A DNA stretch of 45,579 nucleotides from Acidimicrobiales bacterium (GTDB lineage: Bacteria; Actinomycetota; Acidimicrobiia; Acidimicrobiales; CADCSY01), in assembly GCA_025463335.1 (NCBI GenBank), contig JAOBWJ010000185.1, positions 1 through 45,579 on the forward strand, written 5' to 3'. Made by a program: the position numbers and the translations under genes. The notes beneath the pieces are model-generated. The model was not told the origin of the DNA, did no database searches, and saw only the letters and a list, made by a program, of their open reading frames with translations. Shown piece by piece: positions 17,568 through 45,579 of the stretch. Position 1 is the stretch's first letter; each line of letters opens with the position of its first letter.

Positions 17568-17582
17568 CTGTCGGCGACACTG

Positions 17583-21957: not shown

Positions 21958-22079
21958 GGGGGGACTGTGACGGATGCACGTGGCGGGCGATCGACGGAGC
22001 GGTGACCATCAGATGTGGGCGGGCTGAACATTTTCTGGCCAGACGTAAGCTCGCTCCCCAGACAGCCGAGGAGGCACCC

Positions 22080-24913: not shown

Positions 24914-24974
24914 GACCCCACCCTCGCGCACGGCGAGGCCCGCTCCGCTACTGCCTGACCTTTCCGCCGTACGG

Positions 24975-29902: not shown

Positions 29903-32900
29903 GTGGCAGGTGCCTGTGCGCAGGGAACGCTGGACCGAGTGTGGGGGGTGACCCCGTTTGGCGTGCCGGACGCCGACCTCGCCGTCGCCGTGGCGCGGGC
30001 GGGCGGGTTCGCCCTCGTCGACGTCGGCCGTCCGGCGGTCGACGGCTCGACCACGGCCGGGTGGGACGCTGTCCGCGAGGTGGCTCGGCGCGTCGGCTCG
30101 CCGTTCGGGATCCGGGTCCCGCCGGCGCTCCCGGATGGGTTGGTGGACCTGCCCGTCGGCGTGACGACCGTGCTCATCGCCTCGTCGGATGCGATCGATG
30201 CGGCCACCGTCGAGCGGTGGCGCCCGAGGCGGGTGGTGGTCGAGGTCACGTCGCTCGACGAGGCCGAGCGGGCCGCCGCCGCCGGTGCCGACGGGCTCGT
30301 GGTCAAGGGCGCCGAGAGCGGCGGCCGGGTCGGTGTGACCGGCGCCTACGTGCTCCTGCAGCAGGTGGTCGCCGCCGTCGAGCTGCCGTGCTGGTGCCAA
30401 GGAGGCATCGGGCGACACACGGCCGCCGCCGCCATCGTCGGCGGCGCCGTCGGCGTGGTCCTCGACGCCCAGCTCGCCCGGACGCGTGAGGCTTCGGTCA
30501 TCGGTCCTGCGGCGGCGGCCGCGCTCGATGGCATGGACGGCTCGGAGACGGCCGTCGTCGGCGGCCACCGCGTCTTCACCCGGCCCGACCTCCCGAAGCC
30601 GGTACCTGACGACCCGGAGACGATCGAGTCCCGGCTCGGCACCGACCTGCCGGCCGACCTGTTTCCCGTCGGCCAGGACGGCGCCTTGGCCGCGCCGCTG
30701 GCCCGGCGCTACCACACCGCTGCCGCTCTGGTGCGAGCCGTGCGCGCCGCCGCGGACGGCAACGTCCGGCTGGCCCGCCGACTCCCGATCCTCGGTGAGG
30801 GCGCACCGTTCGCGGCCCGCTACGGGCTACGCCACCCGATCGCCCAGGGGCCGATGACGAGGGTCAGCGACCGGCCCGCCTTCGCCGCCGCCGTGGCCGA
30901 GGGCGGCGCCCTGCCCTTCATCGCCCTCGCCCTGATGGAGCCCGAGCCGGCCCGCGCCCTCCTCGAGGAGACGGCGGCGCTGCTGGGCGACCGGCCATGG
31001 GGCGTGGGGATCCTCGGCTTCGTCCCGCCCGAGCTGCGAGCCGGCCAGCTCGAGGTCCTCCGCCAGGTCCGCCCCCCGGTCGCCCTCATCGCTGGCGGGC
31101 GGCCCGCTCAGGCCCGTTCCCTCGACGAGGCCGGCATCGCCACGTTCCTCCACGTGCCTTCGCCCGGGCTGCTCGAGCTCTTCGTCCGTGACGGGGCCAA
31201 GCGCTTCGTGTTCGAGGGTCGCGAGTGCGGCGGCCACGTCGGGCCGCGGTCGAGCTTCGTGCTCTGGGAGCAGCAGGTCGAGACGCTTCTGGCGGGCGAC
31301 GTCGAGGACATGGACGTGCTGTTCGCCGGCGGCGTCCACGACGCCCGCTCGGCGGCCATGGTCGCGGCGCTGGCCGTGCCCCTGGTCGAGCGGGGGGCAC
31401 GGGTCGGCGTGCTGATGGGCACCGCCTACCTCTTCACCGAGGAGGCGGTGCGCTCCGGAGCCATCCAACCCGCCTTCCAGGACGTGGCCGTCGGCTGTCG
31501 GCGCACGACCCTGCTGGAGACGGCACCCGGTCACGCCACCCGGTGCGCCGACAGCGACTTCGCCCGCGCCTTCGAGGCGGAGCAGCGGCGGCTCGACGCC
31601 CAGGGCATGCCGTCGAAGAAGGCATGGGCGGCGCTGGAGGAACTGAACCTGGGGCGGCTGCGGATCGCGGCCAAGGGCATCCGCCGGGAGGGCGACCGGC
31701 TGGTCGACGTCGATGAGGAGGCGCAACGCATCGACGGCATGTACATGCTCGGGGACGTGGCGGCGCTGCGGTCGTCGCCCACGTCGATCGCGGCGTTGCA
31801 CGACGACGTCTCGCGGGGGAGCCAGGAGATCTTGGCCGCGGCCGAGCCCGACCCGACCCCCGTGGACGGGCGCGGCCCGCTCGACGTCGCCATCGTGGGC
31901 ATGGCCTGCATCTTCCCCGGGGCGCCGGACGGGGCCCGCTACTGGTCCAACATCGTCGCCGGGACCTCGGCCTTGACCGAGGTGTCCCCGCAACGCTGGG
32001 ACGCCGAGCGCTACTCGTCGACCGAGGGCACCGGCCAGCGCAGCACCCCGGTCCCCTCGCGGTGGGGCGGCTTCCTGCCACCGGTGCCGTTCGACCCCAT
32101 GCGCTTCGGGATGCCGCCGACCTCGCTCGGATCGGTGGAGACGTCCCAGCTCCTCAGCCTCGAGGTGGCAGCCCGGGCCGTGGCCGACGCCGGCTACGCC
32201 GACCGGGAGTTCGACCGGTCCCGAACGGCGGTCGTCTTCGGTGCCGAGGGAGCGTCGGAGCTGGCGACCGCCTACGGCTTCCGGGCCCTCGCCCCCACCT
32301 ACTTCGGCGGCATGCCCGCCGGCCTGGACGAGCAGCTCCCGGCCCTGACCGAGGACTCCTTCCCGGGTGTGCTCACCAACGTCATCGCCGGCCGGATCGC
32401 CAACCGCCTCGACTTCGGTGGCGCCAACTACACCGTCGACGCCGCGTGCGCGTCGTCATTGGCGGCCCTCCACCTGGCCTGCGGCGAGCTGCTGAGCGGC
32501 GACGCAGACATGGCCCTGTGCGGCGGCGTCGACCTCCACAACGGGATCTTCGACTACCAGCTCTTCGCCAGCGTGCGGGCGCTTTCGCCCACGGGTCGGC
32601 CCCGGCCGTTCGACACCTCCACCGACGGGATCGCGCTCGGCGAGGGGGTCGCCTGCCTCGTGCTGAAGCGGCTCGATGACGCCGAGCGCGACGGGGACCG
32701 CGTCTACGCCGTGGTGAAGGGGATCGGGGCGTCCAGCGATGGACGCAGTCTCGGCCTCACCGCCCCTCGACGGGAGGGTCAACGGGCCGCCCTCGAGCGG
32801 GCGTACCGACGGGCGGGCGTGGCGCCGAGCGCCGTCGGGTTGGTAGAGGCGCACGGGACCGGCACCGTCGTCGGCGACCGCACCGAGCTGGCCACCCTCA

Positions 32901-35900
32901 CCGAGGTGTTCGGCGACGCCGGCGCCGGGCCCGGCGCCTGCGCCATCGGCTCGGTCAAGGCCCAGATCGGGCACACCAAGTGCGCGGCGGGGCTGGCCGG
33001 GGTCATCAAGGCGGCGCGGGCCGTCTACCACGGCGTCCGGCCGGGGATCCCGCACCTCATCCAGCCGGTGACACCGGACACCGGTCGGCCGTCGCCATTC
33101 GCCTTCAGCTCGGTGAGCCGCCCCTGGCCCGACGAGGAGCGAGTGGCGGGCGTCAGCGCGTTCGGCTTCGGGGGCGCCAACTTCCACGTCGTCCTCGCCT
33201 CCCACGACGCGCCCGCCCACGGGCTCGACGCCTGGCCGGCCGAGCTCGTCGTCTTCGCCGGCGACGAGGACGAGGTGCGCGACGCCCTCGAGCGCCTGCG
33301 GGCCCGCCTGGGTTCGCGGGAGGAGCACGCCGCCGACGGGGCCCGGCTGCGGGTGCTGGCCGAGGAGCAGTGGCGGTCGGTGCGGGGGCCGATCCGGGTG
33401 GCCGTCGTGGCCGGCGACCTCGCTGACCTGGCAGCCAAGGTGCAGGGCGCGCTCGACGCCCTCGCGACACCAGGCACCCCGCCTGGCCCTGGCGTGCACA
33501 TCACCGGCGCGGGTGCGACCGGCCCCGTCGCGCTGCTGTTCCCCGGCCAGGGCAGCCAACGGCCCGGCATGCTCGGCGACCTCTTCCTGGCCTTCCCCCG
33601 GCTGGGTGAGCTGCTGCGGGAGGGGGCGCCATGGGCCGACGTGATGTTCCCCGCCGCCAGCCCCGACCCGGCCACGACCGCCGCCCAGGAGGCGGCGCTG
33701 ACCGACACCCGGGTCGCCCAACCAGCCCTGGGCATCGCCGGGCTGGCGGCCGCCCGTCTCCTCGGTGACCTCGGTGTCCGCCCCGACGCCGTCGGCGGCC
33801 ACAGCTACGGCGAGCTCGTCGCCCTGGCGGCGGCCGGCGTGCTCGACGTCGGCGACCTGCTGCCCCTCAGCCAGGCTCGGGCGGAGGCGGTGCTGGCATC
33901 GACCGGAGATGACCCCGGCACCATGGCCGCGGTTGCGGCACCGGCAGACGAAGTGCGCCGGCTGCTCGACGGCTGGGCGGGCGTGGTCGTGGCCAACGAC
34001 AACTCGCCGTCCCAGGTGGCCATCTCCGGCGCCACGACCGCCGTGCACGACGCGGTCGCCCGACTGGCCGAGCAGGGCATCAGCGCCCGGATGCTCCCGG
34101 TGGCCTGCGGGTTCCACAGCCCTCTGCTGGCGGGGGCGGACCGCCGCTTCGCCGACGACCTCGCTGCAGTCGAGCTGCGCTCGCCGCGCCTGCCGGTGTG
34201 GTCGAACTGGTCGGCGGCGCCCCACGTGGACGACGTCCAGGGGATCCGCGAGGCCCTTGCCGCCCAGGTGACGTCCCCCGTGCGCTTCCGCGAGCAGGTG
34301 GAAGCCATGTACTCGGCGGGCATTCGCATCTTCGTCGAGGCCGGCCCCGGCACCGTGCTGTCGGGCCTCGTGGCCCGCACGCTCGAGGGTCGGCCCCACC
34401 AGACCCTCCCGATCGACCGTCCGGGCGTGCACGGCATCGGACAGCTCCTGCACGTGCTCGGCGCCCTGGCGGTGGCCGGCGTCCCGGTCGACCTCGGCCC
34501 GCTCTTCGACGGGCGGGGCAGCGGCGAGACCGAGCGGGTCGCCACCGGCCGTTGGGTGATCGACGGGCCGTTCGTGCGCGACGCCGACGGGTCGCCGGTG
34601 CCGGGCGGCCTGCGCCCCGCCGACCAGGTCGTGACAGTCGGAGCACACCACCCACCGCACGACAACGAGGCCTCCGCGCCTCACGTCCACCGAGAGGACA
34701 TCGCCGTGACCGTCCCCCGTCCCGTACCCACCATCAGCTCGACCCGCGACACCGTCATGCTCGAGCACCTCCGGGGGCTGCAGGACGTGGTGGCCGCCCA
34801 GCGCGACGCCATGGCCCGCTACCTGGGCGGGACCGGCACCGCCGTCCCCGATCCCGTCACCTGGGAGGAGCCGCCGGTGGAGGCCGTGGCCCGTCAGCGC
34901 ACGACCGCCGAGGTCGTCGCCGGGCCGCCACCCGAGCTCGAGTCGGTCCCGGCACCGGCACCGGTGGCCAGCACCCCGGCCCCGGCCCCCGCACCGGTGG
35001 CCAGCGTCCCGGCGCCGCCGGTGAGCCGCACCCTCGACCGCGCCGAGCTGCTCGCCACCATCACCGCCGTCGTGAGCGAGCGGACCGGCTACCCAGTGGA
35101 GATGCTCGGTGCGGAGCTCGACCTCGAGGCCGACCTGAGCATCGACTCCATCAAGCGCATCGAGATCGTCGGGGCCCTGGCCGCCGACGCCGGCATCCTC
35201 GCCGGCGCCGACGTCGAGCTCGACGACGCCGTGGCCGAGGAGCTAGCCGCCCAGAAGACCCTCGCCGGCATCGTGGACTGGGTACTCGGCCACAGCGCAG
35301 GTGGTGACGGTCCGGTGCCGGGGTCGCCGCCTGGCGCTCCCGCTCCCGGGGCGACCCGGACCGCCCAGCCGGCGACCGAGCCGTCGCCCGTCGTCGCCTT
35401 CGCCGCCACCCCCGCCGCCCGTCCAGCGGCGAGCGAGCCGGTGGCGGCCGACCCGTGGTCTGGCGCCGGGTCTCGGACGAACGGTGCCGAGGTCCCCGCC
35501 CTGGCCATCCGGTACGTGCAGCGGGTCGAGCGGTGCGCCGCGCCCGGCGCCGACGATCGCTTCGACGGGGTGACGATCGCCGTGACTGACGACGGCCTCG
35601 GCATCGCCACCGCGCTGGCCGCCCAGCTCGAAGGGCGGGGCGCGAACGCCCGCATCGTCGGCGCGGCGACGGAGATCGGTGCTGCCGACGTCCTCGTGCA
35701 CCTGGGTTCGCTGGCCGCCGACCCGCCCAGACTCGAGACCGTCCTGGCGTCGACGATGGCGGCGATCGGGTGCGGGGTGCGGTCGGTGCTGCTCGTCTCG
35801 GGCACCGGGGGCGCCTTCGGGCGGGAGATGGTGGCCGGGCGCGATGCCAGCGGCCTGCTCCCCGGTGTCGGGCTGCGCGCCATGGCCAAGACCCTCGCCG

Positions 35901-36937
35901 CCGAGCACCCCGACCTGCGGGCCAGGTGCGTCGACGTGGAGCCGAAGACGGAGGCGTCGCTCGTCGCCGGCCAGATCGTCGCCGAGCTCCTCGCCGACGA
36001 CGGGCTGCTGGAGGTGGGCTACCAGGAGGGCCGCCGGCAGCGCCTCCACCTCGTCCCCGAGCCGTTGGAGCAGGATGGCCGGCGGGGCATCGAGCTGGCC
36101 AGCGGCGCCGTCGTCCTCCTCACCGGTGGCGCCCGCGGCATCACGGGGCACCTGTCGCGGGCGCTGGCCGGTCGTGGCTGCCGGGTGGAGCTGCTGGGCC
36201 GCACCCCGCCCCCGGCCGGGCCCGAGGACCCGGTCACCGCCCCCTGGGAAGATCCACCCGACCTCCGACGGGCGCTCATTGCCGTCGGGATCCGCCAGCC
36301 GGCCGAGATCGAGGCCCGCATCGACCGGCTCCTCGCCGAGCGGGAGGTGCGAGCGACGCTCGACGAGCTCGCCGGCCACGTCCGCTACCACGTGGCCGAC
36401 GTGCGCGACAGCGACGCCGTGGCGCGGGTCGTGGCCGACGTCTACGAGCACCACGGCCGACTCGACGCCGTCATCCACGGCGCCGGGGTCGTCGAGGACC
36501 GCCTGGCCCGCGACAAGGACGCCGCCTCCTTCGCCCGGGTGTTCGACACCAAGGTCGAGGGCGCCCACGCCCTGCTGCAGGCCCTGCGACCCGGGACCCG
36601 GGCGGTCGTCCTGCTCGGCAGTGTGGCCGGCGTCTTCGGCAACCGGGGCCAGGTCGACTACGCCGCGGCCAACGAGGCGCTGGAGGCCATTGCCTGGCAG
36701 CACAACGGCGTCACTGCCGACCGGGTGCTGTGCGCCCACCTCGGCCCGTGGGCGGGGCCGGGCATGACGTCCCCCGAGCTGGCCGAGGCCTTCCGGCAGC
36801 GAGGCATGGGCCTCATCGATCCCGAGGACGGCGTGGACTGCCTGCTGCGGGAGCTGGCGCTCGGCTCACCATCGCTGGCCTCGGTGTTGCTGATGCGGGC
36901 CTGGCCGGCGGCGCTGAGCGCGGCGGGGCCGCGGTGA
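29903..36937 (+). CDS. Iterative type I PKS, PUFA-synthase-like: 2x FMN enoyl-reductase (NMO/PfaD-like)-KS-AT-ACP-KR
   Basis: KGAESGG and PIAQGPMTRVSD/EGRECGGHVG (NMO-like barrels); KS VDAACASS, EAHGTGT, IGHTKCAAG; AT FPGQGSQ, GHSYG, GFHS; ACP DLSIDSIKR; KR GGARGIT, GQVDYAAAN. Confidence 0.93.
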   Translation: MAGACAQGTLDRVWGVTPFGVPDADLAVAVARAGGFALVDVGRPAVDGSTTAGWDAVREVARRVGSPFGIRVPPALPDGLVDLPVGVTTVLIASSDAIDAATVERWRPRRVVVEVTSLDEAERAAAAGADGLVVKGAESGGRVGVTGAYVLLQQVVAAVELPCWCQGGIGRHTAAAAIVGGAVGVVLDAQLARTREASVIGPAAAAALDGMDGSETAVVGGHRVFTRPDLPKPVPDDPETIESRLGTDLPADLFPVGQDGALAAPLARRYHTAAALVRAVRAAADGNVRLARRLPILGEGAPFAARYGLRHPIAQGPMTRVSDRPAFAAAVAEGGALPFIALALMEPEPARALLEETAALLGDRPWGVGILGFVPPELRAGQLEVLRQVRPPVALIAGGRPAQARSLDEAGIATFLHVPSPGLLELFVRDGAKRFVFEGRECGGHVGPRSSFVLWEQQVETLLAGDVEDMDVLFAGGVHDARSAAMVAALAVPLVERGARVGVLMGTAYLFTEEAVRSGAIQPAFQDVAVGCRRTTLLETAPGHATRCADSDFARAFEAEQRRLDAQGMPSKKAWAALEELNLGRLRIAAKGIRREGDRLVDVDEEAQRIDGMYMLGDVAALRSSPTSIAALHDDVSRGSQEILAAAEPDPTPVDGRGPLDVAIVGMACIFPGAPDGARYWSNIVAGTSALTEVSPQRWDAERYSSTEGTGQRSTPVPSRWGGFLPPVPFDPMRFGMPPTSLGSVETSQLLSLEVAARAVADAGYADREFDRSRTAVVFGAEGASELATAYGFRALAPTYFGGMPAGLDEQLPALTEDSFPGVLTNVIAGRIANRLDFGGANYTVDAACASSLAALHLACGELLSGDADMALCGGVDLHNGIFDYQLFASVRALSPTGRPRPFDTSTDGIALGEGVACLVLKRLDDAERDGDRVYAVVKGIGASSDGRSLGLTAPRREGQRAALERAYRRAGVAPSAVGLVEAHGTGTVVGDRTELATLTEVFGDAGAGPGACAIGSVKAQIGHTKCAAGLAGVIKAARAVYHGVRPGIPHLIQPVTPDTGRPSPFAFSSVSRPWPDEERVAGVSAFGFGGANFHVVLASHDAPAHGLDAWPAELVVFAGDEDEVRDALERLRARLGSREEHAADGARLRVLAEEQWRSVRGPIRVAVVAGDLADLAAKVQGALDALATPGTPPGPGVHITGAGATGPVALLFPGQGSQRPGMLGDLFLAFPRLGELLREGAPWADVMFPAASPDPATTAAQEAALTDTRVAQPALGIAGLAAARLLGDLGVRPDAVGGHSYGELVALAAAGVLDVGDLLPLSQARAEAVLASTGDDPGTMAAVAAPADEVRRLLDGWAGVVVANDNSPSQVAISGATTAVHDAVARLAEQGISARMLPVACGFHSPLLAGADRRFADDLAAVELRSPRLPVWSNWSAAPHVDDVQGIREALAAQVTSPVRFREQVEAMYSAGIRIFVEAGPGTVLSGLVARTLEGRPHQTLPIDRPGVHGIGQLLHVLGALAVAGVPVDLGPLFDGRGSGETERVATGRWVIDGPFVRDADGSPVPGGLRPADQVVTVGAHHPPHDNEASAPHVHREDIAVTVPRPVPTISSTRDTVMLEHLRGLQDVVAAQRDAMARYLGGTGTAVPDPVTWEEPPVEAVARQRTTAEVVAGPPPELESVPAPAPVASTPAPAPAPVASVPAPPVSRTLDRAELLATITAVVSERTGYPVEMLGAELDLEADLSIDSIKRIEIVGALAADAGILAGADVELDDAVAEELAAQKTLAGIVDWVLGHSAGGDGPVPGSPPGAPAPGATRTAQPATEPSPVVAFAATPAARPAASEPVAADPWSGAGSRTNGAEVPALAIRYVQRVERCAAPGADDRFDGVTIAVTDDGLGIATALAAQLEGRGANARIVGAATEIGAADVLVHLGSLAADPPRLETVLASTMAAIGCGVRSVLLVSGTGGAFGREMVAGRDASGLLPGVGLRAMAKTLAAEHPDLRARCVDVEPKTEASLVAGQIVAELLADDGLLEVGYQEGRRQRLHLVPEPLEQDGRRGIELASGAVVLLTGGARGITGHLSRALAGRGCRVELLGRTPPPAGPEDPVTAPWEDPPDLRRALIAVGIRQPAEIEARIDRLLAEREVRATLDELAGHVRYHVADVRDSDAVARVVADVYEHHGRLDAVIHGAGVVEDRLARDKDAASFARVFDTKVEGAHALLQALRPGTRAVVLLGSVAGVFGNRGQVDYAAANEALEAIAWQHNGVTADRVLCAHLGPWAGPGMTSPELAEAFRQRGMGLIDPEDGVDCLLRELALGSPSLASVLLMRAWPAALSAAGPR
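34946..35026 (+). repeat. Imperfect tandem repeats encoding a PAPAPVAS linker before the ACP
   Basis: GCACCGGTGGCCAGC occurs twice; protein PAPAPVASTPAPAPAPVASVPAPP. Confidence 0.6.
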
Positions 36938-39900
36938 GCCTCGCCGGCGACGAGGAGGGCGCCGTCGCCATCATCGGGATGGCGGCCGTGTTCCCGGGGG
37001 CGGGCGACCTCGACGCCTACTGGTCGAACCTCCTCAACGGAGTGGACGCCATCGGCGAGGTGCCGCCGCAGCGCTGGGATCCGGTCTTCTACGACCCAGC
37101 CGACACCGGCCCCGACCGCTTTTACTGCAAGCGGGGCGGGTTCGTCGACGGCTTGGTCGACTTCGACCCGACCGACTTCTCGATGATGCCCGCCACGGTC
37201 GACGGCATCGAGCCCGACCAGCTCATCGCCCTGGCCACGGCCGCCGCCGCCCTCGACGATGCCGGTGGCCCGGAGGTGCTGACCGCCTCGAGCCGGGCCG
37301 GCGTGGTCCTCGGCCGCGGTGGCTACATCGGGGCCGGGCAGGCCCGCCTCGACCAGCGCACGCGGGTCGCCGAGCAGCTCGTGCGTTCCCTGGGCGAGCT
37401 CGTCCCCAGCCTCGGCCACGCCGACCTGGCCGCCGTGCGCGATGAGTTCCAGAGCCGGCTCGGGCCGCAAGGAGGCGAGGACGCCATCGGGCTCGTGCCC
37501 AACCTGGTCGCGTCGCGAGTGGCCAACCGCTTCGACCTCCGCGGTCCGGCCTTCACGGTCGACGCCGCCTGCGCCAGCTCCCTGGTCGCCGTCGACCACG
37601 CCGTCCAAGAGCTCCAGGCCGGGCGCTGCGACCTCATGTTCGCGGGCGGCGTCCACCACTGCCACGACCTGACCCTGTGGAGCGTCTTCACCCAGCTCGG
37701 CGCCCTCAGCCGCCGGGGCGAGATCCGCCCGTTCGACCGGTCCGCCGACGGGCTGCTCATCGCCGAGGGCACCGGCATGGTGGTGCTCCAACGCCTCGCC
37801 GACGCCGAGCGTGCGGGCCACCGCATCTACGCCGTGATCCGGGGGGTGGGCGTGGCCAGCGACGGGCGAGCCACCAGCCTCATGCGCCCGTCGCCCGAAG
37901 GGGAGGCCGAGGCCATCCGCCGGGGGTGGGATGCGGCCAGGCTCGACCCGGCCACCGTGGGGCTGATCGAGGCCCACGGGACGGCCACGCCGATCGGCGA
38001 CGAGGCCGAGCTGTCGGCCCTGGCCGACGTCTTCGGCCCCCAGGACGGGCCCCGCGTGCCGCTCGGCTCGGTGAAGTCGATGATCGGCCACGCCATGCCC
38101 GCCGCCGGCATGGCTGGGCTCATCAAGACGGCCCTGGCCTTGCACCACCGGGTCGTGCCGCCGACCCTGCACTGCGACGAGCCCCACCCGGCGCTGGCCG
38201 CCACCCGCTTCCGACCGGTGACCGAAGCCGAACCGTGGGCCGCCGACGGTGGGCCCCGGCGAGCGGGAGTCAACGCCTTCGGGTTCGGGGGCATCAACGC
38301 CCACGTCGTGCTCGAGGAGCACGGCGTCGAGCGGCGGGCCGTGGCCCGGGCCCGTCACGGTCAGCGGGCGCGCACCGAGGGTTCGCCGGCGGCCGAGGAG
38401 CGGGTGATCCTCTGCGCGGCCGGAGATCGCGACGAGTTGCTCGCCCAGCTCGATGCCGAGCTGCGGGAGGTGGGCGCCGCCGGTCGGCTCGACCCCGCGG
38501 CGCCCCTGCGCCTGGCGGTGGTCGACCCCAGCCCCCAACGGATCGCCATGGCCCGCAACGCCGTCGCTCTGGGTGAGCCGTGGCGGGGCCGCCTCGACGT
38601 GTGGTTCACGCCCCGGCCGCTCCTCGCCGCGGGCGGCAAGCTGGCGTTCCTCTTCCCGGGCCTCGAGGCCGACTTCTCGCCCCGCATGGACGACGTGGCC
38701 GAGCAGCTCGGCCGTCCCGCACCGCAGGCAGCGGAGGCCGCCGGCCTGGGTGGCCACGGCGTCGAGGTGACGGCGCTGGGCCGGCTCTTGGAGGAGGCCC
38801 TCGGGCAGCTCGGGGTCGAACCCGACCTGGTGGCGGGCCACAGCGTCGGCGAGTGGGCCGGGATGTTGGCCACGGGGATGGTGCCGCCCGACCAGGTGGG
38901 CGACTACCTGGCTGCCCTCGACCCGGCCAACCTGCGCGTCCCCGACGTGGTCTTCGCCGCTGCCGGGTGCGGGGCCGAGCAGGTGGCGGCCATCATCGAC
39001 GGCATCGACGGCGTCGTGGTCTCCCACGACAACTGCCCCCACCAGTCGATCGTGTGCGGGCCGGAGGCGGCGGTCGCCGCCGTGGTCGCCCGGTGCAAGG
39101 CACGACGGATCCTCTGCGAGCAGCTCCCGTTCCGCTCGGGCTTCCACTCACCCATGCTCGAGCCCTACCTCGACCCCATCCGCGAGGGCCTCGAGCGGCT
39201 CTCCCTGCAGCCCGCCCGCGTCCCGCTGTGGTCGGCCACGACGTGCCGGCCCTACCCCGACGACCCCGCCGCCGTCCGCCAGCTCGCCCTGCGACACCTG
39301 GTCGAGCCGGTGCGCTTCCGCGAGCTGCTGCTGGCGCTGCACGACGCCGGCGCCCGGGCGTTCGTGCAGCTCGGGGTCGGGAGCATCGTCGGCTTCGCCG
39401 ATGACACCCTGCGGGGCCGGGAGTACGTCGCCGTGGCTGCCGCGAGTCCCAAGCGCGACGGCCGCGCCCAGCTGCGCCGGGTGGCGGCCGCCCTGTGGGC
39501 CGAGGGGGCGCCGGTCCGCATGGACGCCCCCCTGCTCGGGGGTCGCCCCGACCCCGGGCCGAGGTCGACTGGGTCCGGACGGCGGGCGCTCGACCTCGGC
39601 ACCCGGCTGGTCTCCCTGGAGGGACTGACCCTCCCCGTCGCGGGCGGCGACCGCCGCCCACCGGAGGCGCGGCGTGTCGTCGAGGTGGTGTCGGTCGAGC
39701 GCATGCCCTGGCTGGCCGACCACAGCCTGTTCCGCCAGCGCCAGGGTTGGCCGTTCCTCGCCGACCGCCACCCGGTCGTCCCGTTGACGACGATGATCCG
39801 CTGGATGGCCGAGGCCGCCGGCGCCGCCGCCCCCGGCTGGGAGGTGGTGGGGCTGGAACGGGTGCGAGCCAACCGGTGGCTGGCGGCGGCCCCGCCCTCG

Positions 39901-41124
39901 GAGGTCACGATCACCGCCACTCCCGTGGGTCCCGACCGGGTGAAGGTCGTCATCGAGGGCTACGCCCAGGCCACGGTGGTGCTGGGCGACCGGATGCCAC
40001 CGGCCCCGCCGCCATCGCTCGACCCGACCGCCGACGAGGAGCTGTCGCTGATCTCGGCCGCCCGGCTCTACGCCGACCGATGGATGTTCCACGGGCCGAG
40101 CTTCCAGTCGGTGCACGAGGTGACCGCCATCAGCCCGTCGGGCCTCCGGGGTTCGCTGCAGGCCCTGCCGGCCCCCGGCTCCCTGCTCGACGGGGCCGGG
40201 CAGCTCGTCGGCTACTGGGTGATGGCCCGGCTGGCCACCGACCGCGTCGTGCTGCCCACCGGGGTCGACCGGATCGAGCTGTTCGGCCCCGAGCCGGCCC
40301 CGGGCAGCGTGGTCGACTGCGCCGTCGCCATCACGTCGGTGGACGACAGCTCGGTCCGCGCCGACGTCGAGCTGGTCTCGTCGGGCGGGGTCTGGGCGCG
40401 GCTGTCGGGTTGGACCGAGCGCCGGTTCGAGACCGACGGGTCGACGTGGGCGGTCCACCGGTTCCCCGAGTTCAACCTGCTCTCCGAGCCGCGCCGCGGC
40501 GGTTGGGTGCTGACCCGCGAGCGGTGGCGGCGCACCGCATCGCGGGACGTCATCGCCCGCCACTACCTGGCCGGACCGGAGCGGGCCGAGTACGAGCGGC
40601 TGAACCCCCTCGCCCAGCGCCAGTGGCTCCTCGGTCGCGTCGCCGTCAAGGACGCGGTGCGGGACTGGCTGTGGGGCCATGGCGCGGGGCCCGTCTTCCC
40701 GGCCGAGGTGCTGACCGGCCACGACGAGCACGGGGCACCGACCGTGCGGGGGGCGTTCGGCACCGACCTGCACGTGTCGGTGGCCCACCGGGGGTCGCTG
40801 GCGGTGGCCATCGCCCGCGAAGGCGCCCCGGTCGGCATCGACGTCGAGCTCGTGGCCGAACGACCCGAGCGCTTCGCGGAGGTCGCCGCCACTCCGGCCG
40901 AGCGGGCCCTCGCCGGGCTCGAGGGCGAACCGGACATGACCCGGTTGTGGGTGGCCAAGGAGGCTGCCGCCAAGCGCACCCGCGCCGGCCTGCAGCACAA
41001 CCCCAAGCGCTTCGAGGTCACCGGGGTCGACCTGCCGACGCTGGCCGTAGGCGACGTCCAGGTGGAGACCGAAGCCGTCATCGAAGGAGGAGAGACCTAT
41101 GTCGTGGGCTGGACCACACACTGA
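36934..41124 (+). CDS. Type I PKS: KS-AT-DH-PPTase
   Basis: KS VDAACASS, EAHGTAT, IGHAMPAAG; AT FPGLE, GHSVG, GFHS; DH WLADH..., FHGPSFQ, LLDGAGQ; Sfp-like PPTase VGIDVE, WVAKEAAAK; GTGA overlap with PKS1. Confidence 0.92.
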   Translation: MSLAGDEEGAVAIIGMAAVFPGAGDLDAYWSNLLNGVDAIGEVPPQRWDPVFYDPADTGPDRFYCKRGGFVDGLVDFDPTDFSMMPATVDGIEPDQLIALATAAAALDDAGGPEVLTASSRAGVVLGRGGYIGAGQARLDQRTRVAEQLVRSLGELVPSLGHADLAAVRDEFQSRLGPQGGEDAIGLVPNLVASRVANRFDLRGPAFTVDAACASSLVAVDHAVQELQAGRCDLMFAGGVHHCHDLTLWSVFTQLGALSRRGEIRPFDRSADGLLIAEGTGMVVLQRLADAERAGHRIYAVIRGVGVASDGRATSLMRPSPEGEAEAIRRGWDAARLDPATVGLIEAHGTATPIGDEAELSALADVFGPQDGPRVPLGSVKSMIGHAMPAAGMAGLIKTALALHHRVVPPTLHCDEPHPALAATRFRPVTEAEPWAADGGPRRAGVNAFGFGGINAHVVLEEHGVERRAVARARHGQRARTEGSPAAEERVILCAAGDRDELLAQLDAELREVGAAGRLDPAAPLRLAVVDPSPQRIAMARNAVALGEPWRGRLDVWFTPRPLLAAGGKLAFLFPGLEADFSPRMDDVAEQLGRPAPQAAEAAGLGGHGVEVTALGRLLEEALGQLGVEPDLVAGHSVGEWAGMLATGMVPPDQVGDYLAALDPANLRVPDVVFAAAGCGAEQVAAIIDGIDGVVVSHDNCPHQSIVCGPEAAVAAVVARCKARRILCEQLPFRSGFHSPMLEPYLDPIREGLERLSLQPARVPLWSATTCRPYPDDPAAVRQLALRHLVEPVRFRELLLALHDAGARAFVQLGVGSIVGFADDTLRGREYVAVAAASPKRDGRAQLRRVAAALWAEGAPVRMDAPLLGGRPDPGPRSTGSGRRALDLGTRLVSLEGLTLPVAGGDRRPPEARRVVEVVSVERMPWLADHSLFRQRQGWPFLADRHPVVPLTTMIRWMAEAAGAAAPGWEVVGLERVRANRWLAAAPPSEVTITATPVGPDRVKVVIEGYAQATVVLGDRMPPAPPPSLDPTADEELSLISAARLYADRWMFHGPSFQSVHEVTAISPSGLRGSLQALPAPGSLLDGAGQLVGYWVMARLATDRVVLPTGVDRIELFGPEPAPGSVVDCAVAITSVDDSSVRADVELVSSGGVWARLSGWTERRFETDGSTWAVHRFPEFNLLSEPRRGGWVLTRERWRRTASRDVIARHYLAGPERAEYERLNPLAQRQWLLGRVAVKDAVRDWLWGHGAGPVFPAEVLTGHDEHGAPTVRGAFGTDLHVSVAHRGSLAVAIAREGAPVGIDVELVAERPERFAEVAATPAERALAGLEGEPDMTRLWVAKEAAAKRTRAGLQHNPKRFEVTGVDLPTLAVGDVQVETEAVIEGGETYVVGWTTH

Positions 41125-41422
41125 CGGGTCGGGGCCGACCCCGGCCGAGCTGAACCAGGCCACCGCCGAGATCGCCGCGTTGCTCGGCGAGCTCCTCGGC
41201 GAGGACGTGGTCATGGCCATCGGGGTCGAACCCGAATCCTCCCTCGTGGCCGACATCGAGCTGGAGAGCATCGAGTTCGTGGCCCTGGCCGAGATGATCA
41301 GTGAGCGTTACGGGGAGGAGGTCGACTTCGTGGCGTGGATGGCCGACATGGACATCGACGACATCACGGGGCTGACCGTCGGTGCCCTGGCGGCGTTCGT
41401 CGCCGGTGGCCGGCGGCCTTGA
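41099..41422 (+). CDS. Free-standing acyl carrier protein
   Basis: Small acidic protein; DIELESIEFVAL (Ser attachment site), LTVG.L; SD AGGAGG. Confidence 0.85.
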   Translation: MSWAGPHTDGSGPTPAELNQATAEIAALLGELLGEDVVMAIGVEPESSLVADIELESIEFVALAEMISERYGEEVDFVAWMADMDIDDITGLTVGALAAFVAGGRRP

Positions 41423-41426
41423 GTCC

Positions 41427-42302
41427 ATGGCGAACATGGTGGCCAACGGCGTGCGCTTCAACGTCCAGCGTCTCGGCTCGCCCGGGCCGGCGGGCACGAT
41501 CGTCTGCCTCCACGGCCTGCTCCTCGACAACCTGTCGAGCTTCTATTACACGCTCGCCAACCCGCTCGCGAAGGAGATGGAGGTCGTCCTCTACGACCAG
41601 CGGGGCCACGGGAGGAGCGAGCGGCCGCCGAACGGCTACGGCATCGACGACGCGGTGGGTGATCTCGTCGCCCTGCTCGACGCCCTCGCCCCCGAGCCGC
41701 CGCTGTACCTGTGCGGCAACAGCTACGGGTCGCTGGTCGCCCTCGAGCACGAGCTTCGCTTCCCCGGTCGCGTGGACGGGCTGATCCTCATCGAGGCCCA
41801 TCTCGTCCTGCCCACCTGGGGTGAACAGATGGCCGAAACGATCGACCTCGGCTTGTGGACGGTCAACGAGCTGGCTGCCGCCGACGACGACCGCGGTCGG
41901 GTGCGGGCCGATCGCAAGCTGCAGCGCCAGATGGCCGACGCCCGCGAGATGGTGGCGACCACCAGCCTGGTTCACGACCTGCGCTTCGCGCCGCTCACCT
42001 CCCTGGCCTCCCTCGAAGAGGTGGAGTGCCCGGTGCTGGCGCTGTACGGCGAACGCTCGGATGTGGCCCACGTGGGTCGCCTTCTGGCCGAGAGCATGCC
42101 CACGTGCGAGCTGCGGGTGGTCGCTGACAGCGGCCACTCCCTGCTGATGGAGAGCCCCGCGCGCGTGCTGAGCGAGCTGCGGTCGTGGCTCGCCGAGCTC
42201 GCCGACCAGAGGAGAACCTGCGATGGCCCGCTACTTGATCGTCGTCCCCCCGCTCGTCGGCCACATCAACCCGACCCTGTCGGTGGGCCAGCAGCTCCGT
42301 GA
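41427..42302 (+). CDS. Alpha/beta-fold hydrolase (candidate thioesterase/acyltransferase)
   Basis: LHGL, YDQRGHGRS, nucleophile elbow GNSYG, SGH catalytic His. Confidence 0.88.
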   Translation: MANMVANGVRFNVQRLGSPGPAGTIVCLHGLLLDNLSSFYYTLANPLAKEMEVVLYDQRGHGRSERPPNGYGIDDAVGDLVALLDALAPEPPLYLCGNSYGSLVALEHELRFPGRVDGLILIEAHLVLPTWGEQMAETIDLGLWTVNELAAADDDRGRVRADRKLQRQMADAREMVATTSLVHDLRFAPLTSLASLEEVECPVLALYGERSDVAHVGRLLAESMPTCELRVVADSGHSLLMESPARVLSELRSWLAELADQRRTCDGPLLDRRPPARRPHQPDPVGGPAAP

Positions 42303-43392
42303 GCGTCACCACGAGGTGGCGTGGTGCGGCTACCCCGAGCCGCTCACCGAGCTGCTCCCGCCGGGGGCGAAGTTCCTGCCGGTTGGCCCGGAGGTGCCGC
42401 CGTCGTTGGCCCGAGCAGCCCGGGAGTCCGTGGGGCTGCGGGGGCCGATGGCCCTCAAGTTCCTCTGGGAGGGCTTCATCGTCCCCCTCGCCCGGGCCAT
42501 GGTGCCGGGCGTGGCCAGGGCCGTGGAGGCGTTCGAGCCCGACGTCGTGGTGGTCGACCAGCAGGCGCCGGCGGGTGCCATCGTCGCCCGCCAGGCCGGT
42601 GCCGCGTGGGTGACCTCGGCCACGACCTCGGCCGAGCTGGTCGATCCGTTCGCCGGCCTCCCCAAGGTCGCCAACTGGATCGCCGGGTTGCTGCAGGAGC
42701 TGGAGCAGGCGCACGGCGTGGCGCCGGGGGGCATGGCCCGCGACCTCCGCTTCTCCGACCAGCTCCTGCTCGCGTTCACCAGCAAGGCGCTGGTTGGTGA
42801 GCACGCCGGCTTCCCATCCCATTGGGCCTTCGTGGGCCCGGCCGTCGACGGTCGCCCCGAGGAGGTGCCCTTCCCGTACGACGCGCTGTGCCCCGACGTG
42901 CCCAAGATCCTCGTCTCGCTCGGCACCGTCAACGCGGAGGCCGGCACCCGCTTCTTCGGCCAGGTGGTCGAGGCGCTCGGGCGCCTACCCGTGCAGGGGA
43001 TCGTGGTGGCACCGCCCGAGCTCATCGGGGACATCCCGCCCAACGTGCTCGTCTTTCCCCGGGTGCCCCAGCTCGCCCTCCTGCCGCACATCGACGTCGT
43101 CGTGTGCCACGGAGGACACAACACGGTGTGCGAGGCCCTGGCCCACGGCGTGCCTCTCGTGATGGCACCCATCCGGGACGACCAGCCGATCGTGGCCGAC
43201 CAGGTCGTCCGGGCCGGGGCCGGCAAGCGCCTCCGGTTCGGGCGGGTCCAGTCCGACGACCTGGCCCGGGCCATCGTCGCCCTGCTCGACGAGCCGAGGT
43301 ACCGGGAGCGAGCCCGCCGGATCCAACAGTCCTTCCGGACGGCGGGCGGCGCCCCGGCGGCGGCGGACCGACTCGAGGAGCTCGTCGCGTGA
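42223..43392 (+). CDS. GT1 (MGT/UDPGT-like) glycosyltransferase
   Basis: PPLVGHINP, VSLGT, VPQLALL, CHGGHNTVCEAL..GVP, DQP; SD GAGGAG. Confidence 0.92.
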   Translation: MARYLIVVPPLVGHINPTLSVGQQLRERHHEVAWCGYPEPLTELLPPGAKFLPVGPEVPPSLARAARESVGLRGPMALKFLWEGFIVPLARAMVPGVARAVEAFEPDVVVVDQQAPAGAIVARQAGAAWVTSATTSAELVDPFAGLPKVANWIAGLLQELEQAHGVAPGGMARDLRFSDQLLLAFTSKALVGEHAGFPSHWAFVGPAVDGRPEEVPFPYDALCPDVPKILVSLGTVNAEAGTRFFGQVVEALGRLPVQGIVVAPPELIGDIPPNVLVFPRVPQLALLPHIDVVVCHGGHNTVCEALAHGVPLVMAPIRDDQPIVADQVVRAGAGKRLRFGRVQSDDLARAIVALLDEPRYRERARRIQQSFRTAGGAPAAADRLEELVA

Positions 43393-45260
43393 GCGCCGTC
43401 TGTGTGGTGTTCGCCCTCGGCTTGGTGCTCTCAGCCCTCGCTCGCCGGCTCCGCCTGTCGGGCCTCACCGCCCTCGTCTCGCCAGGCCCGGCGGGCTCGG
43501 TCTGGGATCCCGAGTGGCTCCTGGCCAGCGCGGCCGGGGTCGAGGTCGACGAGGCGACCGTCGCGGCCGCCGTGACCCACGCCGAGGCGCGGGGCCTCGA
43601 AGTCCTCGACCTCGTCCCGGGCGACCTGCCCGTCGCCCAGGTCCTCGAGCTGGCCGGCGCCGTCGACACCACCCGCTACCGCGCCGACCGGTTCGCGACC
43701 GGCGCCGGCGCCGGCCAGGCGACGCTGATCCGCCGCCCGGTCCTCGAACGCATCGGCCCGCCAGGTCTCGGTCCCGACCTGAGCAACCTCGACCCGGTGG
43801 CATACGCCTCGTTGCTCCGCGAGCTCAAGCTGGTCGCTTCCGACGCCACCGACCTCGCCATCGCGCCGCGCATGCGGGCCCGGCCGCCGACCATCGCCGA
43901 CCAGCGCCGGCTGCTCGAGGCTCGCACGAGCGCTCCGACCCTGGTCGGCTCCGCCCTCCCCGCGGTGCTGGCCGGGCGCGCCGCGGGCGTCGCGGTGGCC
44001 GCCGCCGGCCTCTGGCTGCGACCGATCGCCGGGATCGCGGTCGTGGCCGCCTACTGCGCGCAGCCGGCCATCGTCATCGCCGGCCGTGGGCTGCGCCCTG
44101 CCGACGGGGTCCGGGCGACGGCGCTCCGCTGGCTGGTCGGCCCCATCCGACTGGCCCGCCTGGCCGTCACCGGCTTCGCCCGCCGGGGCACAGATGTGGG
44201 CCGCGACGCCGGGTTCGGCGATCGCCGAGCCGTCTACGACAAGCTCCTCGCCGAGGGCACCGAGGGGTTCTTCGAACCCCGGCGAGCGACGTGCCCGTGG
44301 TGCGGGGCCGGGGCCCTTCGCCGGGTCCTGCGGACTCGGGACCTCTTCCAGCACAAGCCCGGCGCGTTCACGCTGGATCGATGCCTGCGCTGCAGCCACG
44401 TCTTCCAGAACCCTCGTCTGTCGGAGGACGGGCTGGACTTCTACTACCTCGACTTCTACGACGGCCTCGGCGAGGAGCTGATGGACGGGGTGTTCGCCAC
44501 GACGGTGCACTCCTACGAGGCGCGCGTGGCGTTGCTTGGCTCGGTCGCCACGCCGGAGCGTTGGCTCGACGTCGGCGGCGGGCACGGCCACTTCTGCGCC
44601 GTCGCCCGCGACCGGTGGCCGGAAGCCACGTTCGAGGGGTTGGACCTCGGCGACACGGTGTGGAAGGCGGTCCGCCGCGGCTGGATCGACGCCGCCCACC
44701 AGGGGATGTTCCCCGAGCTCGCCCCCAGCCTCGCCGGCCGGTACGACGTCGTGAGCATGCACCACTACCTCGAGCACACCACCGATCCTCGGGCCGAGCT
44801 CGACGCGGCGGCGATCGCGCTCCGGGTGGGTGGCCATCTGCTCATCGAGCAGCCCGACCCCGAGTTCGGCCTGCGTCGGGTGCTTCGTTCGGCGTGGCTG
44901 CCGTACTTCCAGCCTCAGCACCTGCACCTGGCCAGGGTCGGCAACATCGTCGCCGCGCTCGAGGAGCGAGGCTTCACCGTCGTCGCCGAGGAGCGTGGCG
45001 CCGCCCACCAGGGCGGTGACCTCGCCTTCGCCGTCTTCCTGCTCCTGTCGCGCCTCAGTCGCCCACCCGATCTCCCGTGGCGCCCACCCGGGGGTCGGCT
45101 GCACCGGGTCTGGCACGGCTCCCTCCTGACCGCGCTGCTGCCGTTCTTGGCGCTCGCCGCCCTCGCCGACCGCGTGGTCGCCGTCCCCCTGGCCCGGCGG
45201 GCCCGCCACGGCAATGCCTACCGCCTTGTGGCCCGCCTCGACGACGCGCCCGCCGTCTGA
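43389..45260 (+). CDS. Membrane-associated class I SAM methyltransferase with a CxxC...CxxC zinc motif
   Basis: Hydrophobic N-terminal region; CPWCG...CLRCSHVFQNPR; WLDVGGGHG; YDVVSMHHYLEH; C-terminal TM segments; GTGA overlap. Confidence 0.85.
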   Translation: MSAVCVVFALGLVLSALARRLRLSGLTALVSPGPAGSVWDPEWLLASAAGVEVDEATVAAAVTHAEARGLEVLDLVPGDLPVAQVLELAGAVDTTRYRADRFATGAGAGQATLIRRPVLERIGPPGLGPDLSNLDPVAYASLLRELKLVASDATDLAIAPRMRARPPTIADQRRLLEARTSAPTLVGSALPAVLAGRAAGVAVAAAGLWLRPIAGIAVVAAYCAQPAIVIAGRGLRPADGVRATALRWLVGPIRLARLAVTGFARRGTDVGRDAGFGDRRAVYDKLLAEGTEGFFEPRRATCPWCGAGALRRVLRTRDLFQHKPGAFTLDRCLRCSHVFQNPRLSEDGLDFYYLDFYDGLGEELMDGVFATTVHSYEARVALLGSVATPERWLDVGGGHGHFCAVARDRWPEATFEGLDLGDTVWKAVRRGWIDAAHQGMFPELAPSLAGRYDVVSMHHYLEHTTDPRAELDAAAIALRVGGHLLIEQPDPEFGLRRVLRSAWLPYFQPQHLHLARVGNIVAALEERGFTVVAEERGAAHQGGDLAFAVFLLLSRLSRPPDLPWRPPGGRLHRVWHGSLLTALLPFLALAALADRVVAVPLARRARHGNAYRLVARLDDAPAV

Positions 45261-45350
45261 CGTCCGAGCCCTCGAAGGCGCACACCTAGGCGAGCGAGCC
45301 CACGTGATAGCGCCCCTTCGGTGGGGGTCGGTGAAAAGCAAAGACGCTCC

Positions 45351-45396
45351 CAGGGCGAGGGCCGCATTGCTCACGTCGGTGCGGCCGTTCGCCCTG
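45351..45396. terminator. Long GC hairpin, possible terminator
   Basis: CAGGGCGA-G-GGCCGCA ... TGCGGCC-GT-TCGCCCTG; no clear U-tract. Confidence 0.4.
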
Positions 45397-45417
45397 AGTT
45401 CTGGGCAGTTCTTGGGG

Positions 45418-45579
45418 GGCGGTCTCAACCGGTGTGCGCAAGAAGCTCGGACAGCCGTTCCGATGGTTTCATGAATCCGAGGGTTTCGCGGGGTCGGTTG
45501 TTCAGGCTGCGGGCGAAGCGGTCGAGGTCGGCTTCGCTGAGCAGGGACAGGTCGGTGGCTTTGGGCATGTATTGGCGTA
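45418..45579 (-). mobile_element. IS30-family insertion sequence, right end (partial)
   Basis: Transposase C-terminus ends inside a probable terminal IR, GGCGGTCTCAACCGGTGTGCGCAA (45418-45441). Confidence 0.85.
45425..45579 (-). CDS. IS30-family transposase, C-terminal fragment
   Basis: Own translation ..RQYMPKATDLSLLSEADLDRFARSLNNRPRETLGFMKPSERLSELLAHTG*; RQY.PK and LN.RPR..LG are IS30 signatures. Confidence 0.9.
   Translation of the reverse strand, partial: RQYMPKATDLSLLSEADLDRFARSLNNRPRETLGFMKPSERLSELLAHTG

Follow-up and report, generated by a model that had tools for sequence, protein, structure and literature searches.

Pfa-like synthases were sorted by Shulse and Allen in 2011 into Types A to T of "secondary lipid synthases" (PLoS One, PMC3098273, cited throughout from its passages on the types concerned). 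According to these passages, Type P, which is found in Azotobacter vinelandii and Beijerinckia indica, makes the alkyl chains (C22-26) that occur in phenolic lipids. In the Hgl synthases (Type F), HglC has the order ketosynthase (KS), chain-length factor (CLF), acyltransferase (AT), and dehydratase/isomerase (DH/I) domains are lacking. Streptomyces coelicolor represents Type L, in which pfaD and pfaA are separate and a fused gene encodes KS-CLF-DH2-AT, while Type M was listed for three Frankia genomes, Renibacterium salmoninarum, Actinosynnema mirum and Streptomyces avermitilis and described as uncharacterised with regard to its product (PMC3098273). In the relevant section of a paper from 2026 (PMC13291983), the Renibacterium layout consists of a gene fusing an enoyl reductase (ER) to a PfaA-like protein and of a subsequent fused gene ending in a phosphopantetheinyl transferase (PPTase); there, too, the cluster is called uncharacterised. 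Full-text literature searches, which returned these two sources, did not disclose a product assigned to any Type M cluster. Here we describe an operon of six genes at positions 29903 to 45260 of a 45,579 bp stretch of DNA (referred to as the window), contig JAOBWJ010000185.1 of the Acidimicrobiales bacterium draft genome GCA_025463335.1. Its layout fits the widespread Type M family, of which we consider it a member. Of its two large polyketide synthases (PKS1 and PKS2), the first is homologous to ArsA and the C-terminal half of the second to ArsD; the catalytic residues are intact and the six genes are tightly co-inherited. The operon is not new as a kind; it belongs to a known, common and uncharacterised family and was found in an unusual host.

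Organization of the operon

All six genes are located on the plus strand and have overlapping or abutting ends, in agreement with a first-pass annotation of the window made from the sequence alone:

29903-36937, plus strand: PKS1, 2344 aa; FabK-like pseudo-ER, FabK-like ER, KS, putative malonyl-type AT, one acyl carrier protein (ACP) domain, ketoreductase (KR); ArsA homologue
36934-41124, plus strand: PKS2, 1396 aa; KS2, AT2, PKS-type dehydratase (DH), Sfp-type PPTase; C-terminal half homologous to ArsD
41099-41422, plus strand: free-standing ACP, 107 aa; PP-binding 1.6e-4; Ser57 in an ESI motif
41382-42302, plus strand: alpha/beta hydrolase; Abhydrolase_6 1e-23; GNSYG nucleophile elbow, His252
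42223-43392, plus strand: nucleoside diphosphate (NDP)-sugar glycosyltransferase of family GT1 (MGT/YjiC/OleD-like); TIGR01426 9.7e-54
43389-45260, plus strand: membrane-anchored class I S-adenosylmethionine (SAM) methyltransferase, 623 aa; PF13489 (Methyltransf_23) 3.6e-25

The stop codon of PKS1 and the start codon of PKS2 overlap by 4 bp (GTGA), as do the reading frames of the glycosyltransferase and the methyltransferase by the same length. The ATG of the free-standing ACP resides 26 bp inside the end of PKS2 and is preceded by the sequence aaggagg. For the hydrolase, a second possible ATG exists at position 41427, 5 bp past the stop codon of the ACP. The overlapping stop and start codons support the existence of a single operon, whose six frames show a third-position GC content of 0.84-0.93. 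A long antisense open reading frame (ORF) at 43431-45578 was rejected as a gene, as it gave no Pfam match and has a third-position GC content of 0.76, compared with 0.92 for the methyltransferase frame.

Domain structure of PKS1 and PKS2

Domains were assigned by means of Pfam and NCBIfam; Pfam families were listed at E<=0.001. PKS1 comprises the following domains:

29930-30787, plus strand: N-terminal domain of the NMO/FabK fold (ER'); Pfam NMO 4.6e-11, match to FabK structure 4iql 3.5e-11
30788-31852, plus strand: FabK-type enoyl reductase domain (ER); TIGR03151 FabK 7e-37, FabK structures 4.5e-18; motifs QGPMTRVSD and FEGRECGGHVGP
31883-33316, plus strand: KS1; Pfam 2e-62 and 3.5e-35; Cys-His-His (DAACASS, EAHGTGT, GHTK)
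33527-34414, plus strand: AT1; Pfam 9e-33, FabD 1e-51; GHSYGE
35057-35197, plus strand: integrated ACP; PP-binding 1.2e-4; motif LSIDSIKRIEI
36107-36754, plus strand: KR; Pfam KR 3.6e-28; GGARGITG, YAAAN

The top NCBIfam match of PKS1 is the PfaA model TIGR02813, with which the protein is colinear across KS-AT, ACP and KR; in 14 control genomes, no PfaA exceeded the cut-off. The two halves of residues 1-650 each adopt the FabK barrel fold (AlphaFold2 model of the didomain with pLDDT 91 and pTM 0.92). Foldseek identified FabK as the best match of the ER model (target TM 0.88; 0.49 for the PfaD structure 4z9r), and a sequence search of solved structures returned FabK entries and no entry for PfaD at E<=0.001. 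In ER', an Arg replaces the His of the FabK GG-His motif (GAESGGRVG), and TPFG stands in place of QGPM. For comparison, ER' and ER of the window were aligned with those of 62 relatives, two of 64 candidates having been dropped because their halves were situated in different ORFs. ER has kept ECGG-His in 62 of the 63 aligned sequences, the remaining row showing a gap. At the same site of ER', there is Arg in 58 of 63 sequences, Pro in three, His in one and Gln in one, accompanied by TPF(G/E)EP instead of QGPM. We take the His of the ECGGH motif to be the catalytic residue of FabK, and ER' is a conserved, divergent ER-like domain that possibly does not reduce. The annotation "ER-ER" given to the window before is therefore right insofar as two FabK-fold domains are present, but only the second one retains ECGGH, and it is FabK-like rather than PfaD-like.

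The match of the integrated ACP to PP-binding is weak (22.7 bits compared to a cut-off of 20.8) and was obtained only when the segment was scanned alone. The segment aligns with the ACP region (1365-1481) of TIGR02813, and its motif is presumably of the PUFA (polyunsaturated fatty acid) synthase style. Within the family, the Cys of KS1 as well as the Ser of AT1 and the Arg 25 residues further on (Arg+25) are conserved in 61 of 61 members, the Ser of the integrated ACP and the Tyr of KR in 36 of 36. The corresponding Arg of Escherichia coli FabD binds the carboxylate of malonyl. Judging from this residue, AT1 should be a malonyl-loading domain.

The domains of PKS2 are:

36961-38340, plus strand: KS2; active-site Cys; C213, H348, H386
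38641-39513, plus strand: AT2; Pfam 5e-19; GHSVGE
39670-40437, plus strand: PKS-type dehydratase (PS-DH); PF14765 1.4e-11, PF21089 (PKS_DH_N)
40531-41121, plus strand: Sfp-type PPTase domain; PF01648 2.5e-11; GIDVE, WVAKEAAAK

C213, H348 and H386 of KS2 are invariant in all 15 sequences compared. Since the active-site Cys is present, we regard KS2 as a ketosynthase and not as a chain-length factor; the operon encodes only these two KS domains, both with the Cys, and no CLF. AT2 does not possess the malonyl-binding Arg. Position +25 is occupied by Leu in 13 of the 15 sequences, including the window, and by Phe in the other two. As Arg+25 is kept in AT1 and replaced in AT2, AT1 is predicted to use malonyl, and AT2 should be an acyltransferase for non-carboxylated acyl groups that could serve in starter loading, chain hand-over or off-loading. 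An off-loading function has reportedly been ascribed to the PfaB-type AT of PUFA synthases. His930 and Asp1086 of the DH are invariant, as are D1303, E1305, K1342 and E1343 of the PPTase. Among the listed Pfam families there was no FabA-type DH/isomerase, the DH region yielding PS-DH and PKS_DH_N, and no reductase-terminal family indicative of a thioester reductase was among the matches of the six proteins at the same threshold. The full reductive set of KR, DH and ER that had been read from the sequence before is thus present.

Relationship to ArsA/ArsD

When plasmid sequences were searched by tblastn, the DH-PPTase half of PKS2 matched the B. indica plasmid pBIND02 (NC_010578.1). The locus comprises, in this order, genes for a 2674-aa type I PKS, two type III PKSs, a 629-aa protein consisting of PS-DH and PPTase, a GT4 glycosyltransferase, and transporters. 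The 2674-aa ArsA-like protein contains two NMO-like domains, KS, AT, two PP-binding domains and KR. PKS1 is 41% identical to it over 1676 aligned residues, colinear from residue 10, and has the same order ER'-ER-KS-AT-ACP-KR. Identities of the individual parts amount to 52.5% for KS1, 51% for ER, 39% for AT1, 32% for ER' and 31% for ACP-KR. Between the DH-PPTase half of PKS2, which aligns over 85% of its length, and the ArsD-like protein, the identity amounts to 32%. KS2 is 44% identical to the Beijerinckia ArsA-like KS and 41% to KS1. Moreover, the His missing from ER' of the window is also missing from that of Beijerinckia, which has a Gln there, and the ACP motif DSIKRIEI is common to both proteins.

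The two systems also differ. The Beijerinckia protein has two integrated ACPs and contains the motif twice, whereas PKS1 has one. In the window, DH-PPTase is fused behind an additional KS-AT, and free ACP, hydrolase, GT1 and methyltransferase follow, while GT4 and transporter genes lie downstream in Beijerinckia. Type III PKS genes (PF00195), which would fulfil the role of ArsB and ArsC, are absent from the operon, in which PKS1 and PKS2 leave no space between them, and were not found in the 90.9%-complete host genome either. Taking homology and domain order together, we regard the ArsA/ArsD fatty acid synthase, rather than Hgl, PUFA or SCO0126/0127, as the nearest characterised system. Accordingly worded, Type M would best be described as an ArsA/ArsD-like synthase from which the type III PKS genes have gone and to which KS-AT, free ACP, hydrolase, GT1 and methyltransferase have been added.

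On pBIND02, positions 15728-20351, behind the Ars-type cluster, encode the GT4 glycosyltransferase together with an ABC transporter and an RND adaptor. Phenolic lipids are not known to be made by B. indica, according to the passage on Type P (PMC3098273). The product of its Ars-type cluster may be glycosylated and exported.

Relationship to Type M, Pfa, Hgl and Type L

In the window, ER is fused to a PfaA-like KS-AT-ACP-KR protein, and the second protein fuses KS, AT and DH with PPTase, which corresponds to the description of the Renibacterium layout (PMC13291983). A metagenome-assembled genome (MAG) labelled Frankia alni (a MAG, not strain ACN14a) carries all six genes in unchanged order, and its PKS2 is 51-52% identical. 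The conserved tail of ACP, hydrolase, GT1 and methyltransferase as well as the ER-like domain with the exchange of His for Arg are, however, not mentioned in the parts of PMC3098273 and PMC13291983 dealing with Type M, and the host of the window, an Acidimicrobiia-like draft genome, is outside the listed hosts. For nodules of Frankia alni, a "polyketide synthase" (FRAAL4072) has been reported at 4.6 times its abundance in culture (PMC8951365, Table 1); it may or may not belong to the Type M operon.

The window resembles the Pfa systems by its iterative type I KS-AT-ACP-KR protein, an FMN-type ER and the associated Sfp-type PPTase. It differs from them since PKS1 stays below the PfaA cut-off, since a KS-CLF pair, a FabA-type DH/I and tandem ACPs are lacking, and since the ER is FabK-like. 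In common with Hgl, there is a Pfa-like synthase linked to a glycosyltransferase, and the expected product is a long-chain glycolipid. Hgl systems reduce the chain to an alcohol by a thioester reductase. The window, in contrast, has neither CLF nor thioester reductase among the families listed, but a PKS-type DH and a methyltransferase. The Pfa/Hgl style noticed in the first-pass annotation holds for KS-AT, ACP and KR, for which PfaA is the best, colinear model, whereas the resemblance to Hgl is loose.

SCO0126-0127 was named a predicted "eicosapentaenoic acid" cluster in a Streptomyces genome paper. By joining this with the assignment of S. coelicolor to Type L, we infer that SCO0126/0127 is the Type L cluster. 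Like the operon studied here, it is an actinobacterial Pfa-like cluster without an assigned product, but its second protein is a KS-CLF-DH2-AT protein that is not fused to a PPTase, and pfaD and pfaA are separate. The earlier comparison of the window with the SCO0126/0127 layout had to be abandoned in favour of Type M.

The genes downstream of PKS2

Ser57 of the free ACP is present in all 67 family members. The hydrolase gave an additional weak Thioesterase match (8e-6). At its position 114, 67 of 70 sequences have Ser and three have Cys; His252 occurs in all 70. It is a candidate for the enzyme that releases or transfers the chain.

With the TIGR01426 model ("macrolide family glycosyltransferase") the GT1 protein reached 182.9 bits, the cut-off being 260, while Pfam UDPGT and EryCIII-like_C were both over their cut-offs. 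His14 is conserved in 65 of 66 sequences, and HGGHNT and DDQ are conserved as well. Relatives among the structures in the PDB are YjiC, Kcn28, CalG2 and OleD, i.e. the likeness is to small-molecule UDP-glycosyltransferases.

Hydropathy analysis of the methyltransferase revealed hydrophobic helices at residues 1-23, ~189-230 and 570-605. Residues 302-335 form a Cys4 zinc ribbon, in which Cys302, 305, 332 and 335 are invariant in 24 sequences, and residues 24-185 gave no Pfam match. Foldseek neighbours of the AlphaFold2 model (pLDDT 89) include zinc-ribbon sugar C-methyltransferases and RebM/AtmM. Most Streptomyces homologues align to residues 280-618 only.

Co-inheritance and distribution of the six genes

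By use of a profile of PKS2 relatives, 80 loci were collected from species-representative genomes, and the proteins of the window were placed on them by local tblastn. Fifty-nine of the loci included the PPTase end and at least 6 kb downstream of it; the other 21 were excluded from the downstream count as too truncated. ACP and hydrolase were present in 59/59, GT1 in 58/59 and the methyltransferase in 53/59, and all four followed PKS2 directly and in this order in 51/59. The eight exceptions comprise five loci without a methyltransferase match, the locus of Plantactinospora without GT1 and methyltransferase, a rearranged MAG labelled "Proteobacteria" and one Rhodococcus locus with an altered gene order. 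Upstream of PKS2, both ER-like domains together with KS-AT were detected in 64 of the 65 loci having at least 7.5 kb there. Clustering of the flanking ORFs gave no further family common across genera. Because of this, the inherited unit is exactly six genes and includes no dedicated gene for sugar synthesis or transport, and the operon had rightly been called self-contained. Chance cannot plausibly account for the arrangement, given that dozens of genomes show the identical gene order.

Carriers among cultured or named genera are Streptomyces, Kitasatospora, Kutzneria, Catenulispora, Rhodococcus, Plantactinospora and Aquihabitans; carrier MAGs were labelled Frankia alni, Solirubrobacteraceae, Myxococcales, Kofleriaceae and Gemmatimonadota, so that a few of the carriers are not actinobacterial. 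To estimate frequencies, the DH-PPTase half was used as query at E<=1e-30. It matched 5 of 401 genomes drawn evenly from the phylum, the host included, and none of the 19 listed genomes of the same order nor the single genome of the same family. By the same query, 71 of 201 sampled genomes of the genus Streptomyces were positive, a count that includes the carrier taken as centre and one genome flagged as unpublished. GroEL of the window is 85% identical to that of a carrier MAG labelled "Actinomycetes", 81% to that of an Acidimicrobiales MAG, 79% to that of Aquihabitans and 65% to that of Frankia. Probably, the host is Acidimicrobiia-like, and the cluster is patchy among such organisms. Regarding the host, the first-pass annotation was justified in speaking of a poorly studied lineage, as the genome is a draft and its GroEL shares 79-85% identity with those of Acidimicrobiia-type genomes. 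The family is not rare, in view of its frequency in Streptomyces and its cataloguing as early as 2011.

Some loci harbor a second hydrolase between ACP and hydrolase. The locus of Rhodococcus daqingensis (14400-23722) is an expanded form that also contains another alpha/beta hydrolase, a GHMP-kinase-like ORF, another membrane methyltransferase and a further GT1, pointing to a product with more sugar and methyl groups. The joint occurrence of the extra methyltransferase and the extra GT1 is consistent with the methyltransferase acting on sugars. We also noticed AT-DH-PPTase proteins of ~950-1030 aa without KS, mostly in Pseudonocardiaceae (P0013, P0019, P0032, P0066 and others), indicating that KS2 is sometimes split off or absent, and one Kutzneria genome with three DH-PPTase matches (G408 C2:45783-47027).

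An 846-kb linear, mobilizable plasmid of Streptomyces sp. NBC_00984 bears the six genes at 2060-19123, with an IS3 transposase gene ~0.9 kb downstream of the operon. The names given to the genes by PGAP are generic; PKS1, for instance, appears as "SDR family oxidoreductase". The plasmid-borne copy close to IS3 is consistent with horizontal spread.

Proposed pathway and alternative explanations

We propose that the operon encodes an Ars-like synthase for a long-chain saturated or hydroxylated acyl chain, which is subsequently glycosylated and methylated, yielding a methylated long-chain glycolipid of the cell envelope or exterior. To this reading we assign a probability of roughly 55%. In the scheme, the PPTase domain would activate the ACP of PKS1 and the free ACP, and AT1 would load malonyl units. 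KS1, KR, the PKS-type DH and the FabK-type ER would then carry out iterative cycles leading to a long, largely saturated acyl chain, for which a length of at least C20 is expected by analogy with Ars. A saturated rather than a polyunsaturated chain is predicted because FabA-type DH and CLF are lacking while an ER is present. Where Ars uses two type III PKSs, KS2-AT2 and the free ACP might accept the chain and either retain or introduce one or more hydroxyl groups. The alpha/beta hydrolase would release or transfer the chain, GT1 would attach a common NDP-sugar, and the membrane-anchored methyltransferase would O-methylate the product at the membrane. Chain length, the positions of hydroxyl groups, the acceptor atoms of GT1 and methyltransferase, and the roles given to KS2-AT2, the free ACP and the hydrolase are predictions of this scheme. 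The glycosylated and methylated lipid already suggested in the first-pass annotation is a reasonable expectation.

Several points weigh against this proposal. No family member has a known product, so that all chemical detail is deduced. The logic by which hydroxyl groups would be retained is unreadable from the sequence, and a fully reduced chain would offer GT1 a carboxylate only. The acceptor of the methyltransferase was not identified by Foldseek, whose matches are generic class I methyltransferases with a target TM of at most ~0.7. The methyltransferase was not found in 6 of the 59 loci and GT1 in one of them, indicating that the operon can do without these decorations. None of the six proteins reached an NCBIfam equivalog cut-off, and PKS1 scored 828.5 bits with TIGR02813, under the cut-off of 1010.1. 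The assignment to Type M is based on the available text of the 2011 catalogue, the description of the Renibacterium layout of 2026 and the synteny with the MAG labelled Frankia alni. Finally, in the passage on Renibacterium, its Type M synthase is suggested to be perhaps the sole complete fatty acid pathway (PMC3098273), and ordinary fatty acids could accordingly be the product.

This last point leads to an alternative in which the operon is a second fatty acid synthase that provides membrane or storage lipids with long saturated fatty acids, with GT1 and methyltransferase being dispensable or using another acceptor. Apart from the role proposed for Renibacterium, it would agree with the plain saturated C22-26 chains yielded by the Ars homologues (PMC3098273) and with those loci in which no methyltransferase was found. 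We nevertheless think it unlikely, as GT1 is linked to the synthase in 58/59 loci, across phyla and with overlapping frames, and as the additional KS2-AT2 and free ACP would be left without a role. In addition, FabD-, FabF- and FabZ-like genes exist elsewhere in the host genome, so that the host does not need a replacement synthase. Doubtful to a somewhat higher degree is the idea that the operon is the missing biosynthetic route of macrocyclic dilactone glycolipids of the glucolipsin, fattiviracin and cycloviracin type. The KS-AT and free-ACP "head" module would leave hydroxyl groups on a very-long-chain acid, GT1 would glucosylate them, the hydrolase would, on releasing the chain, esterify the carboxyl group to a sugar hydroxyl, resulting in dimerisation and lactonisation, and the methyltransferase would make 2-O-methylglucose. 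Such products do contain hydroxy fatty acids of C19 to ~C33, glucose and esters joining C1 of the fatty acid with C6' of glucose, and cycloviracins carry 2-O-methylated glucose, as stated in the sections of PMC4365757 on these compounds. Among the papers listed by a search on the names of the compounds, none dealt with their biosynthetic genes, the six genes cover every enzyme class needed, and the family is present in Streptomyces and in relatives belonging to the Pseudonocardiales. However, the chains of glucolipsin are iso-branched and 2-methylated, which is not obviously achieved by an Ars-like synthase using malonyl only, and a single GT1 would have to serve several hydroxyl acceptors. 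Furthermore, with the cluster occurring in about one third of the sampled Streptomyces species, these rare compounds should be seen more often, unless it is silent. If true, this explanation would assign both product and function to a cluster that occurs in about one third of the sampled Streptomyces species and in Frankia.

A strict PUFA or heterocyst-glycolipid synthase, producing polyunsaturated acids or a fatty-alcohol glycoside, is very improbable. Among the NCBIfam models, KS-AT, ACP and KR do match PfaA best, and a glycosyltransferase is present as in hgl; but both KS domains retain the Cys, leaving no CLF, neither a FabA-type DH/isomerase nor a thioester reductase was among the listed families, the integrated ACP is single and not arranged in tandem, and the ER resembles FabK and not PfaD. 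The description of Type F as KS-CLF-AT without DH/I domains (PMC3098273) does not match the operon either. Still less credence is due to the notion that GT1 is a self-resistance enzyme inactivating macrolides and merely adjacent to an unrelated PKS. Its best family is TIGR01426, and OleD/OleI are among its relatives, yet with 80 versus 700 bits it is far under the cut-offs of the resistance families, is translationally coupled on both sides and is inherited together with the PKS in 58/59 loci.

Neighbouring genes in the window

The window represents one entire contig of a 3.98-Mb draft genome that consists of 424 contigs, is 90.9% complete and has a G+C content of ~73%. The contig ends 319 bp past the methyltransferase gene, and the sequence beyond is not visible. 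Upstream of PKS1, in divergent orientation and separated from it by a gap of 209 bp, the following gene was identified:

28983-29693, minus strand: response regulator of the NarL/LuxR family; Pfam GerE and NCBIfam NarL-like matches

The regulator is a possible local regulator outside the conserved unit; it gave a weak match in 1 of the 80 related loci, at another place of that locus. Positions 1-28900 contain housekeeping genes, among them those for trehalose-phosphate synthase and phosphatase, GroEL, AmtB, GlnD and a CBS-citrate synthase, and also two LuxR-type regulators. A large MalT-like LuxR ATPase regulator and an ORF similar to acyl-CoA thioesterases (4HBT_3) are encoded at 24122-27179 on the minus strand, 3-5 kb upstream of the operon. 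In the clustering of flanking ORFs they were not conserved beside the operon in other genera. The citrate synthase at 22002-23615 (plus strand) carries a fused N-terminal CBS pair (Pfam CBS 3e-28, Citrate_synt 1.5e-113). At 11356-16531 (plus strand), the genes for AmtB, a pyridine nucleotide-disulphide oxidoreductase and GlnD lie one after the other. Actinobacteria usually have glnK between amtB and glnD; no PII gene (glnK) was among the scanned ORFs between these two genes of the window. A long ORF with a SpoIID domain at 6974-9646 on the minus strand overlaps a chlorite-dismutase-like (HemQ-type) gene on the plus strand (8504-9226). Likely, only the portion of the minus-strand ORF below ~8450 is real.

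Significance

The gene set described here is among the commonest orphan lipid clusters of actinomycetes, and fifteen years after its cataloguing it has no known product. The copy in the window is no better entry point than those of cultured Streptomyces, and its individual value is thus modest. What the analysis adds concerns the family as a whole. Its unit of inheritance comprises six genes, and its kinship is with ArsA/ArsD rather than with Hgl or PUFA synthases. A KS-AT with a putative non-malonyl AT and a free ACP would replace the type III PKS partners of the Ars system, and the FabK His has been lost from the first ER-like domain family-wide.

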